Source: Nannocystaceae bacterium (GTDB lineage: Bacteria; Myxococcota_A; Polyangia; Nannocystales; Nannocystaceae). From it: a stretch of DNA of 20,294 nucleotides. Numbering within the stretch: the stretch's first letter is position 1; each line of letters opens with the position of its first letter. The DNA is taken from assembly GCA_044344875.1 (NCBI GenBank), contig JBIJCC010000154.1, positions 1 through 20,294 on the forward strand, written 5' to 3'. Below the pieces are notes generated by a model. It saw only the letters and a list, made by a program, of their open reading frames with translations, had not been told where the DNA came from and ran no database searches. This document shows, one piece after another, positions 2,098 to 4,808 of this stretch. The position numbers and the translations under genes are program-made.

Positions 2098-4296
2098 TTA
2101 GTCGTCCCATGAGACCGGACGTCGAAGCCTCACTGCCTCTAACTCGATCTCAATGCGCTTGCCATTGCGGAGATTGTAGTGAGCGACAGCACACGGCTCC
2201 CGTGCCTGCACCGCATCGATCTCGCGACACTGCCAAACTTCCAGGATCAAATCAACAGCAAGCTCCGAGAGCGACCCGCGCTGAGCATCCACTGAAGACG
2301 AACCAGCAAACTGACGAAGCACGCTCTGCGCCGCATAACCGATCCTCGCGGTCGTCACAACCACATTCTCGCCCAGCGTCACGCGATCAAGCACGTCGCA
2401 CAAATCAAGGCTTATCGTCGCATCAAACTCGTCCTCGTAATCAAACTTACCAGACTCGACCACCAGGATCTCGTCCCCATCATCAAGACCGAGAGCCCAA
2501 TCACGAAGGCGCTCCACATCAAGGGAGAAACCAGCTGCCTGAAAACACCGCACATTCGCCGGAAGAACGCCTAGTCCCAGAACAAACTCGGCCAGACCGA
2601 AATCGTGAGAATACATCCACCTAGATCCATCAGCTTCGATAGCGGCACTGACCGCCGCTCGCAACTCTTCGGCAGAGATTACTGGATTCGCCGCAGCACG
2701 ATCCAGCCTGGGATTCTCGGCCACCACCACACCTTCAACGAATGGACACTGCCAGTCGCATGCCATACCACCAACAACAAGCACCCGCGGCTTCGGCTCA
2801 CGAAAGTCCTCACCGCCAGACAGCCTAAACCTGCCAAGAAGATCGCCGTCTCGACGCACGTCACACACATGCGAACTTCTTCTTTCGCTTGCAGTCGCGG
2901 CGACACCTGAAATGCGCGACAGCAGCTCGTCAAACGGCATACTTTCCCAATCTCGGGGAGCAACCAGTGTATCAGCCATCGTGAGCTCTGAGACCAGTTC
3001 AAAGCGAAGGCTGACGTCGAGACATGGCGCCAGCCTGGCCAGGCACTGGCACGCATGTCGAAATCTTTCTTCTTCGTAGCTACCCGTTCTAGAACGCGGA
3101 GCACTATTCACCGCGGCATTCAGAGTGGACCTCCCGAACACGCCTTGCGACGCCCACGGATCGGTCTCAAGCCAGACGCGAACTCGCGTGCCACCGCGCG
3201 GGACACTCTCGCCTGCAGCTGCACCCGGACGCGCACTTCGCAGAGTCGGATGCTTCAGGTCGCGACTTACCTCAAGCACCTGAGTGCTCGTCGCCGCGGC
3301 ATCATAGCGATTCGTTACAACACGCACCCGCGCACCAAGCATGAAGACCGAGAAGAAGCCGATGCCGAACTTCCCAGCCGGTCGAAATTTGCTGGCAAGC
3401 AAGCCAGGATGCTCGCGACGCATGAGATGGCCTCCCCAGTAGGAGGTTCCAAAATCCAGCAGCGGCCCGCGAATGACCTCTTCGCTCATGCCAATCCCGT
3501 CATCAGCGACTTCGATCCACCAGCCACCTTCATCACTACCAATGCGGACGGTAACGCAGCCATCCGAGTCTCCGTATCCAGCAGAAGGCAGCGACCTCCG
3601 TGCGCGCACAGCGTCTGCGGCATTAGCGACCAACTCCCTCAACGAGGCAAGTGGATTGACGCCGTAGAGGGCCTTGCCTCCGAACCGCTCTACGACTGAC
3701 GCCACGTCTGAAACCCGAACGGTCACGTCAAGCGGCTTCCAACCGGAGGTGGTTAGAAACGCAGAGAAGTGAGTGGGGCTCTCTGCGCCTGCAACGCCTT
3801 GTGCGCGGAACCCAGGAAGACCAGAACGACTCAAAGCCGCCTGTGAACCACGAATCTCCGCATCAGCCCATCTCACGAGCGACTCATAGGCAATCCACCA
3901 CGCGCGCTGCTCGTCCACGCCGAAGGCCGTCACACTCCGATACTCGAGCTCGAGGGACCGTGGGTTGATAGTTGGAATATTGATTCTATTCTGAAAACGC
4001 CAGTGCTCTAGTGATTCCCCTCGCGGCCCTCGGATAGCCATCTCAAGACTGCTAGCTCGCCGAAGATCGAGATGACATCCGTCCGCACAGCGTAGGGTGC
4101 AAGCGACCTTCAGAATGTCTGCAGTCCACCCCGGCATCAGGGACCATGACACCCGCCGATCGAAGAACTCACGTTCAACATCCACCATGCTCCAGTGATG
4201 ACTTGCTGCAATAGTGCCGATCAGCTCACCGAACTCATGCCTAAGCTCGGCATCGTCGAGAAGGTAGATGCGTTCGGTCGGATTGTCAAGGGTCAC
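2098..4296 (-). CDS. HSP90-like GHKL ATPase (HATPase_c_3-type), 732 aa, with large N- and C-terminal extensions of unknown function
   Basis: Bergerat-fold motifs: N box ELVANAADA (compare HSP90 ELISNASDA), G1 box DDGIGMS, G2 box GKFGIGFFSVF (compare HSP90 GQFGVGFYSAF). It is a continuous 732-codon ORF. Its ATG at 4294-4296 overlaps the upstream gene's stop (atga coupling). Confidence 0.8.
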   Translation of the reverse strand: MTLDNPTERIYLLDDAELRHEFGELIGTIAASHHWSMVDVEREFFDRRVSWSLMPGWTADILKVACTLRCADGCHLDLRRASSLEMAIRGPRGESLEHWRFQNRINIPTINPRSLELEYRSVTAFGVDEQRAWWIAYESLVRWADAEIRGSQAALSRSGLPGFRAQGVAGAESPTHFSAFLTTSGWKPLDVTVRVSDVASVVERFGGKALYGVNPLASLRELVANAADAVRARRSLPSAGYGDSDGCVTVRIGSDEGGWWIEVADDGIGMSEEVIRGPLLDFGTSYWGGHLMRREHPGLLASKFRPAGKFGIGFFSVFMLGARVRVVTNRYDAAATSTQVLEVSRDLKHPTLRSARPGAAAGESVPRGGTRVRVWLETDPWASQGVFGRSTLNAAVNSAPRSRTGSYEEERFRHACQCLARLAPCLDVSLRFELVSELTMADTLVAPRDWESMPFDELLSRISGVAATASERRSSHVCDVRRDGDLLGRFRLSGGEDFREPKPRVLVVGGMACDWQCPFVEGVVVAENPRLDRAAANPVISAEELRAAVSAAIEADGSRWMYSHDFGLAEFVLGLGVLPANVRCFQAAGFSLDVERLRDWALGLDDGDEILVVESGKFDYEDEFDATISLDLCDVLDRVTLGENVVVTTARIGYAAQSVLRQFAGSSSVDAQRGSLSELAVDLILEVWQCREIDAVQAREPCAVAHYNLRNGKRIEIELEAVRLRRPVSWDD

Positions 4297-4808
4297 AAAC
4301 CGTCTTTAGCGAGCCTGACGGCCGCCGCGGCATGCACCTGCCGCAGCCTCTCGAATATCACTGCGTCGCGAATAGCCGGGGATGGATTCGCAGCTTCATC
4401 GGCACTCGGTCGGCGACCGTTCGCGGCCATGAAGTGAGAAACAAGGGCGTCGTCCCACTCTGGCCCCTTGAGCCCGTCAACCCCATCGGGAAAGGCAGCA
4501 AGAGAGTTCGCGAGATCGTGAAGGAGGATTGCGCCTCCGAGGAGAAATCCCTCAAGAGGATTGACTGGGTAGTCTTCACCAGTGATTAGGCCGGCCATCT
4601 GCCAAAGCGCATCCAAGTGCCTTACGGAATGATCCGTAAGGTGAGGCAATGTCCGAGCGATCTCAGAAGCAAGGATCTCGGCTCGGCTTCGAAAGCCGTC
4701 GTAGGCAACCACAAGACGATTCGTCGCTTCGCCTTCGCCTGCGCGGTCGCTTGTTCCGAACGCGCGTCGCCAGATTGGGGTGTCGCGATAGCTCTGATAT
4801 GGAGGCAT
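4293..4808 (-). CDS. HD-domain (metal-dependent phosphohydrolase/nuclease superfamily) protein, 171 aa
   Basis: H..H then HD motif: LTDHSVRHLDALWQMAGLI...LLGGAILLHDLANS. ATG at 4808 is preceded by GAGAGGAACGGAAGA (SD-like), 13 nt after the MVP stop. Its stop overlaps the GHKL start. Start alternatives exist up to 4919, so it is uncertain. Confidence 0.6.
   Translation of the reverse strand: MPPYQSYRDTPIWRRAFGTSDRAGEGEATNRLVVAYDGFRSRAEILASEIARTLPHLTDHSVRHLDALWQMAGLITGEDYPVNPLEGFLLGGAILLHDLANSLAAFPDGVDGLKGPEWDDALVSHFMAANGRRPSADEAANPSPAIRDAVIFERLRQVHAAAAVRLAKDGL

Follow-up and report, generated by a model that had tools for sequence, protein, structure and literature searches.

Prokaryotic MORC-type GHKL ATPases occur fused to effector domains in restriction-modification (R-M) neighbourhoods (PMC3710099). 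Proteins that combine the Pfam domain PF24391 (HD-CE) with HATPase_c_3, such as those of Myxococcus stipitatus (P0008), Melittangium boletus (P0104) and a Symbiobacteriia metagenome-assembled genome (MAG; P0002), are named at their sources 'HD domain-containing protein' or 'ATP-binding protein'. The present analysis concerns a gene that shares their domain order and their length of ~880-920 amino acids (aa), and that lies in the entire 20,294-bp contig JBIJCC010000154.1 of a Nannocystaceae bacterium (GCA_044344875.1; ~70% GC, hereafter the window), next to a gene whose product is homologous to major vault protein (MVP). We consider it very likely that a foreign block of ~3.6 kb was acquired horizontally and now sits directly downstream of a native MVP gene, its main cargo being a single frameshifted HD-CE/GHKL gene of 903 codons accompanied by a remnant of an IS5-family insertion sequence (IS).

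Once repaired in silico, the window gene is collinear from end to end with the PF24391 and HATPase_c_3 proteins and has their near-invariant residues in common, and it resembles the M. stipitatus and M. boletus members in being a solo gene beside transposases. It is unlike them in its frameshift and in an identity of only 38-46%, and it alone among the family members examined is positioned 11 nt behind MVP. The MORC, paraMORC and SMCHD1 GHKL ATPases have a HEPN or endonuclease effector where the window gene has HD, and the sequence of the window gene is closest to Hsp90 and not to MORC, the likeness to the restriction-linked MORC fusions being one of analogy. The Hsp90 chaperones themselves (HtpG, TRAP1, Grp94, Hsc82) are 13-17% identical to it, and none has the N-terminal HD hydrolase. 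Like IS-associated genomic islets, the block deviates in GC, third-position GC and codon usage, adjoins what is left of a transposase, is missing from orthologous loci and shows gene decay; it differs from them in that neither an integrase nor a tRNA, direct repeats or IS ends could be detected and in that synteny anchors one side only.

The foreign block and its frameshifted gene

The claim of the sequence-only reading that the HD and GHKL genes are compositionally foreign was confirmed. Its four spot counts of GC in 60-nt windows were reproduced exactly (0.45 at 2401-2460, 0.65 at 3001-3060, 0.65 at 4441-4500 and 0.683 at 6001-6060), as was its value of more than 70% for the kinase region (0.72-0.79). 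The in-frame GC content at third codon positions (GC3) was 0.583 for the GHKL open reading frame (ORF; 2098-4296) and 0.587 for the HD ORF (4293-4808), compared with 0.94 for MVP, 0.91 for the lipoprotein, 0.90 for the WGR protein, 0.90 for the sigma factor, 0.91 for the serine/threonine kinase and 0.91 for ORF 14182-16356. The codon adaptation index (CAI), calculated in a leave-one-out manner with these six native window genes as the reference, was 0.20 for HD and 0.21 for GHKL and 0.71-0.80 for the native genes. By both measures HD and GHKL fall outside the range of the host, which was estimated from the present contig and four related loci. The GC content of 2098-4808 was 0.583 (z = -4.1 against the mean of 717 600-nt windows from four closely related loci). 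GC at the first and second codon positions does not account for the drop in the HD/GHKL gene; GC3 alone is down by more than 0.3.

As a measure independent of annotation, GC was determined in 600-nt windows for each of the three codon phases, and the highest of the three values was taken (max-phase GC). Max-phase GC was 0.61-0.71 in all 23 windows starting at 1201-4501, 19 of which fall below the minimum of the relatives (0.695; mean 0.873; 478 windows), and it rises to 0.94-0.98 within MVP. The step on the MVP side is sharp, with GC3 going from 0.94-1.00 in the final MVP windows to 0.5-0.7 directly after. From GC3, CAI, the GC z-score and max-phase GC it therefore follows that the foreign block is real, far beyond chance and contiguous over ~1227-4810, which is wider than the 2098-4808 to which the sequence-only reading had drawn attention (Table 1).

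Table 1. Features of the left part of the window, with coordinates on the contig and the matches or measures by which they were recognised.
Feature	Position	Strand	Basis
HD-CE + GHKL (Hsp90/MORC-like ATPase) gene, 903 codons after T restored	2098..4808	-	Split Pfam HD-CE; end-to-end alignment
Frameshift site, T3 run (GGTTTG, minus strand), expected T4	4297..4299	-	Homologue alignment, in-silico repair
N-terminal half of HD-CE domain, H..H.D + HD dyad (LLHDL)	4299..4649	-	PF24391, 66.7 bits, profile 1-120
C-terminal half of HD-CE domain	3850..4251	-	PF24391, 82.7 bits, profile 129-262
GHKL (Bergerat) ATP-binding domain	3163..3642	-	HATPase_c, HATPase_c_3
Compositionally foreign block, ~3.6 kb	1201..4810 (left edge ~1227)		Max-phase GC; GC 0.54-0.66
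Native MVP homologue	4822..7320	-	MVP_shoulder 85.7 bits (cut-off 25), Vault_3 39.3 bits (cut-off 28.8), GC3 0.94
Degraded IS5-family transposase, C-terminal ~60% only, over three frames	1600..2089	+	DDE_Tnp_1, NF033580
NADAR-domain C-terminal fragment, in low-GC block beside IS5 remnant	1230..1420	-	Pfam NADAR, TIGR02464
Small native-composition lipoprotein ORF	798-1226		GC3 0.90
EF-G (elongation factor G) N-terminal fragment, 132 aa	138-536	-	EF-G model 7-116 of 691, GC3 0.88

As sequenced, the gene is contained in two ORFs of 171 aa and 732 aa in different frames, which the sequence-only reading had taken for a two-gene HD-GHKL module. The alignments correct this and indicate one HD-CE and HATPase gene that was broken by a single-base deletion. 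The two parts of the HD-CE domain, both above the Pfam gathering cut-off of 27 bits, fall on either side of the break, and the frame switch must fall in the stretch of four codons that separates the two stops. The junction reads GAC GGT TTG TGA on the minus strand, the stop TGA (4293-4295) overlapping a GTG (4294-4296) as GTGA; a G-F pair is found at the junction in seven of nine aligned homologues. Addition of one T to the run gives ...AKDGFVTLDNPTERIYLL... and a single ORF of 903 codons (4808 to 2098) without further stops. The repaired ORF aligned to P0002 in a single high-scoring segment pair (residues 4-898 against 32-920, 44% identity) and to P0003 with 46% identity over residues 7-903. 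The full-length homologues recovered (~107) are all single polypeptides of ~880-920 aa; an uninterrupted polypeptide of that size was not found in the window, where it is intact only after the in-silico repair. Of 111 near-invariant family columns the window copy keeps 108; the mismatch at H64, one of three, results from an alignment slip.

It is somewhat unlikely that the frameshift arose by error during sequencing or assembly and that an intact, functional 903-aa gene, which would still be foreign, is present in the organism. In favour of such an error, the frameshift is the sole lesion of the gene and lies in a homopolymer run (T3 instead of T4), and the near-invariant residues, all catalytic motifs and the remainder of the 903 codons are undamaged. 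Against this stands Logan contig L001 (SRR11637992), which was separately assembled and is identical to the window over 1900-7971, frameshift included. GCA_041445565.1 appears to carry the frameshift too, since the gene calls on record for it comprise a truncated 696-aa product (2098-4188, minus strand) and, antisense to the HD half, a spurious ORF of 85 aa (4332-4589, plus strand), and no gene of 900 aa; the N-terminal half of HD-CE is left uncalled, and these calls are an annotation artefact of the frameshift. A run of three to four T is also short for a systematic homopolymer error. Because the gene is otherwise pristine, and because of the Logan contig and the gene calls of GCA_041445565.1, we regard the frameshift as probably real and recent. 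The window copy is most probably a recently inactivated pseudogene, as the lost T splits the HD domain into two ORFs, and an intact product is probably not made here.

That both pieces are produced, by reinitiation at the GTGA, and reassemble as a two-subunit enzyme is very unlikely. The overlap of TGA with GTG, the position of the break in the structural model (in a loop or hairpin between helices 144-168 and 187-205 of HD-CE) and the undamaged remainder of the gene would be compatible with such a functional split. However, the overlap is a trivial result of a 1-nt deletion at this sequence, no clear Shine-Dalgarno sequence precedes the GTG, the break falls within a catalytic domain, and none of the full-length homologues is made as two chains. 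At best highly improbable is the further proposal that the two frameshift products reassemble and work with a vault-like shell.

The MVP neighbour and related loci

The contig encodes, besides the MVP homologue, a Cys-rich lipoprotein, a WGR protein, an extracytoplasmic function (ECF) sigma factor and a Ser/Thr kinase with tetratricopeptide repeats. The MVP homologue is 86-91% identical at the amino acid level to orthologues in Nannocystaceae and 'Deltaproteobacteria' MAGs, and by its closest relatives the contig belongs to the Myxococcota, probably to the Nannocystaceae. A scan of the GTDB species genomes gave 66 MVP loci, nearly all from Myxococcota/Deltaproteobacteria, with flanks of up to 10 kb; within these 10 kb an HD-CE/GHKL relative was encoded in none of the 66. 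Two related loci, L059 (~90% identical to the window at the nucleotide level over 5162-18594) and L004, are collinear with the window from MVP to ~18.5 kb and include the genes for the lipoprotein, the sigma factor, the kinase and the ORF at 14182. Synteny is kept on the non-foreign side of MVP only, and only in these two closest collinear relatives. Nucleotide homology to those relatives that reach the 3' end of MVP ceases at 4849-4886, which is the end of MVP, and an exact empty site was not recovered among the related loci. The foreign composition and the absence from the 66 MVP loci make the horizontal acquisition of the HD-GHKL DNA, as the sequence-only reading had suggested, very probable.

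The 3 kb downstream of MVP were compared among 55 loci by tblastx clustering with the SEG filter and a threshold of 100 bits. These regions are not conserved (39 clusters from the 55 loci, 32 of them singletons) and are unrelated even among the closest genomes (L002, L004 and L010); for the genes that follow MVP in L002 and L010 no match was obtained in any other locus. Clustering without the low-complexity filter linked 47 of the 55 loci by spurious matches in high-GC, low-complexity sequence, which dissolved with SEG. Because homology ends at MVP and the downstream 3 kb are unrelated between loci, the 3' flank of MVP is a synteny breakpoint, with an occupant in the window that is unique. Since each close relative differs downstream of MVP, this flank looks like a recombination or insertion hotspot in the lineage. 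Its occupants include in L004 an ORF at 15330-15563 that starts with MAQLIVRNL... and looks like a small antitoxin, in L002 a Ser/Gly-rich lipoprotein and in L010 a probable formate-tetrahydrofolate ligase.

A second difference between the collinear loci was observed on the other side of MVP. The block at 8434-9827, between the lipoprotein and ECF sigma factor genes, contains a WGR + DUF6891 gene (8446-9480, minus strand; native-like GC3 of 0.90) and is found in the window only, being absent from the otherwise collinear L059 and L004; it is an indel without compositional signature.

The stop codon of MVP lies 11 nt upstream of the ATG of the foreign gene (4808), with GAGGAA in the spacer, and no terminator-like site was found between the two genes; from this spacing and the lack of a terminator, read-through transcription of the foreign gene would be possible, on positional grounds only. 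The two genes being on the same strand, this arrangement also favours an operon or mobile cassette, the latter an alternative raised by the sequence-only reading, in which MVP and HD/GHKL would have been acquired together with HD/GHKL as vault partner or cargo. We consider this highly improbable. The boundary between the genes coincides exactly with a fall in GC3 from 0.94-1.00 to 0.58, and the six distinct homologue loci whose gene contexts were inspected contain no MVP gene. The mobile whole cassette was rejected because MVP is native, as seen from the 66 loci without HD-CE/GHKL and from the homology that stops at the 3' end of MVP; GC3 of MVP, its closely similar orthologues and the restriction of synteny to its other side agree with this. 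The other alternative of the sequence-only reading, a native MVP beside captured DNA, therefore stands: MVP is native, and the foreign gene is probably without functional tie to it.

It is extremely improbable that the low-GC block is an assembly chimera of another organism's DNA and the myxobacterial contig. The contig was assembled from a metagenome, begins in tandem repeats and shows an abrupt compositional step; yet the block lies inside the contig, flanked left and right by coding DNA of native type (to the left, GC3 of 0.88-0.90 at 138-1226), and the MVP junction was reproduced in a separate Logan contig and in a 16.7-kb NCBI contig that has the same gene order. Just as improbable is an old resident gene whose atypical codon usage was kept on other grounds, be it that expression is low or that AT-richness is selected for: in six of six homologue loci checked the flanks are richer in GC than the gene, which could reflect a bias intrinsic to the family, but the gene is absent from every related MVP locus, adjoins an equally GC-poor IS remnant (0.60), shows the drop in GC3 for which GC1 and GC2 give no explanation, and has its nearest homologues outside the myxobacteria.

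The proposed history is thus that of a single HD-CE/GHKL gene acquired horizontally next to a native MVP, in which one T would have been lost from a short T-run, leaving the HD domain in two ORFs and the gene recently inactivated. The broken gene would now be decaying alongside the IS5 remnant and other gene fragments.

Gene fragments and repeats around the block

The degraded IS5-family transposase reported by the sequence-only reading at ~8 bp from the GHKL stop was found there: its last ORF stops at 2089, 8 bp short of that stop codon (2098-2100), and it is convergent with the HD-CE/GHKL gene. Its translation, stitched from three frames, matches Pfam DDE_Tnp_1 (E 1.7e-6, 28.3 bits, cut-off 23), and its best NCBIfam match is NF033580 IS5 (E 8e-13, profile 104-221 of 258), with a score of 48.5 bits against a cut-off of 110. 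The segments GKPTKIMAMAD, VIGDRAYDS and YRHRQKV...LLAFVQLG are recognisable in it. An intact transposase ORF is not present, and terminal inverted repeats were looked for and not found. The remnant is GC-poor like the HD-CE/GHKL gene, but there is no evidence for its co-transfer with that gene, because it has no relative in any HD-CE/GHKL homologue locus.

Together with the frameshifted gene and the IS remnant, two further fragments bear out the description of the locus as a junkyard. The NADAR fragment covers positions 128-162 of 163 of the Pfam profile (34.5 bits, slightly under the cut-off of 35.1) and positions 118-152 of 153 of TIGR02464. The ORF at 138-536 is a fragment of a truncated EF-G paralogue; it corresponds to the N-terminal GTPase part, and its stop comes immediately before the terminal tandem repeats.

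At its start (1-122) the contig has a 24/25-nt unit (GGATCAGTTCTGCCGAACTGG...) repeated in tandem about five times. Directly after the stop of the lipoprotein ORF, where the low-GC block has its left edge, there is a doublet (TTTCAGTTCTGAG x2, 1217-1245) that has the core TCAGTTCTG in common with the contig-start repeat. A 14-nt motif of the contig-start repeat is absent from every related locus fetched. Direct and inverted repeats within 1-5200 look like chance matches and gave no convincing island edges; in the search for such edges no Rfam family and no integrase were found, the transposase remnant being the only gene of this kind.

A second foreign or atypical segment may be present at the right end of the contig (19650-20294), which is also GC-poor (0.60-0.63) and has a max-phase GC under the minimum of the relatives. 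It contains an ORF of 171 aa (19655-20170, minus strand) that is rich in Cys and lipoprotein-like.

The HD-CE/GHKL family

The gene consists of an N-terminal HD-CE metal-dependent phosphohydrolase, a GHKL module of the Hsp90/MORC/SMCHD1-like N-terminal and middle (transducer) type, and a C-terminal region of ~300 residues. The HD metal ligands are kept (H60/H64/D66, H97-D98, H159, H204 and D243/H246/D248, numbered as in P0003), and the GHKL motifs I (ExxxNxxDA), II (DxGxG) and III (GxxGxG) are intact as LRELVANAADA, VADDGIGM and GKFGIGFFS. HATPase_c was matched with 28.9 bits (cut-off 26.4) and HATPase_c_3 with 27.8 bits (cut-off 25). An AlphaFold model of the homologue P0003, built from a 109-sequence alignment, had a predicted local distance difference test (pLDDT) score of 92 and a predicted template modelling (pTM) score of 0.87. 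In Foldseek ~500 columns of this model align with full-length Hsp90s (Hsc82, Grp94, TRAP1; E ~1e-12), the fold resembling the N and M domains of Hsp90; in PDB sequence searches the Hsp90 N-domain alone was detectable. The gene is not an HtpG orthologue, because it scores 52.7 bits with the NCBIfam HtpG model against a cut-off of 371 and matches model positions 28-146 only. Apart from the Hsp90-like ATPase domain, searches of PADLOC, NCBIfam and PDB sequences pointed to no functional family; in PADLOC-DB 2.0, P0002 had no match and the window ORF had a single marginal match, to the GHKL region of a type II restriction endonuclease (E 0.0057). A literature search for HD-CE found no paper.

The family is experimentally uncharacterised, widespread and patchily distributed. 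Among the candidates scored, 1,235 proteins were detected at E <= 1e-5, the best being 46% identical. The best matches (44-46%) come from Symbiobacteriia, Myxococcus, Rhodopirellula, Paenibacillus, Variovorax, Thiocystis, Streptomyces and others, the named matches spanning Bacillota, Myxococcota, Planctomycetota, Pseudomonadota and Actinomycetota. Within the six loci inspected the homologue lies between IS21, IS66 and IS3 genes (Myxococcus stipitatus), between ISL3/DDE_3 and a convergent DDE_Tnp_1 transposase (Melittangium boletus), adjoining a split integrase (Symbiobacteriia MAG), behind an overlapping Xre-type helix-turn-helix gene and beside large helicases (P0011), after HsdS and a 914-aa AAA_23 ATPase (P0003), and adjoining McrB/McrC (P0004). 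Strong matches were also obtained on 16 IMG/VR contigs predicted to be viral. Plasmid homologues are rare (a partial match on one small Zymomonas plasmid and weaker partial matches on a few others), and deposited phage genomes gave one weak partial match and no full-length copy. Together with the lower GC of the gene than of its flanks in all six homologue loci checked, the pattern is that of a mobile solo gene of the defence-island type.

By analogy with the Hsp90, MORC and SMCHD1 ATPases, and with the fusions of GHKL and effector domains that lie near R-M genes (PMC3710099), we infer that ATP binding would lead to N-terminal dimerisation or clamping of the GHKL module, which would sense a trigger and, via the transducer domain, gate the N-terminal HD phosphohydrolase. 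The latter would degrade a nucleotide messenger or alarmone, or nucleic acid, as a conflict or defence effector. By this analogy the gene would likely have its role in conflict, as an HD phosphohydrolase gated by ATP, and the window copy is probably inactivated. More tentatively, the HD-CE + Hsp90/MORC-like family (>1,200 detectable members) might be an unrecognised single-gene defence or conflict system in which the GHKL clamp gates an HD phosphodiesterase with PPX/GppA and cyclic-nucleotide phosphodiesterases as nearest structural relatives, the window copy being freshly acquired, just inactivated and placed for read-through expression from MVP.

Several points weigh against the account of a captured and inactivated foreign gene given here. 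The Shine-Dalgarno-like GAGGAA and the 11-nt spacing after MVP would allow co-transcription and may mean some functional coupling. The edges of the block are without att sites, direct repeats, tRNA or IS inverted repeats. Comparison with orthologous loci, from which the sequence-only reading had expected the insertion boundaries, defined the edge on the MVP side and not the left one, whose placement near 1227 comes from composition only, there being no syntenic relative on that side and the contig of the closest relative, L059, ending within MVP. The frameshift may be an assembly error after all, as the assemblies may share reads. With the nearest relative at no more than 46% identity, no lineage can be put forward as the donor, and the defence role is one of guilt by association from about eight genomic contexts, since the family has no match in PADLOC and no paper on it was found.

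The locus is a routine case of ordinary foreign-gene capture and decay, and its residual novelty is in the uncharacterised family and not in the locus. Its direct value is mostly corrective: the apparent MVP-HD-GHKL operon of three genes resolves into a native MVP gene and, behind it, an unrelated broken foreign gene, and the function of bacterial vault proteins should not be inferred from the present neighbourhood. In the gene calls on record the N-terminal half of the HD-CE/GHKL gene is missing. Beyond this the locus points to a large uncharacterised family of HD-hydrolase/Hsp90-like ATPases, for which the contexts with IS, integrase, R-M and McrBC genes and viral contigs, together with the consistently low GC, make the family a reasonable defence-gene candidate.

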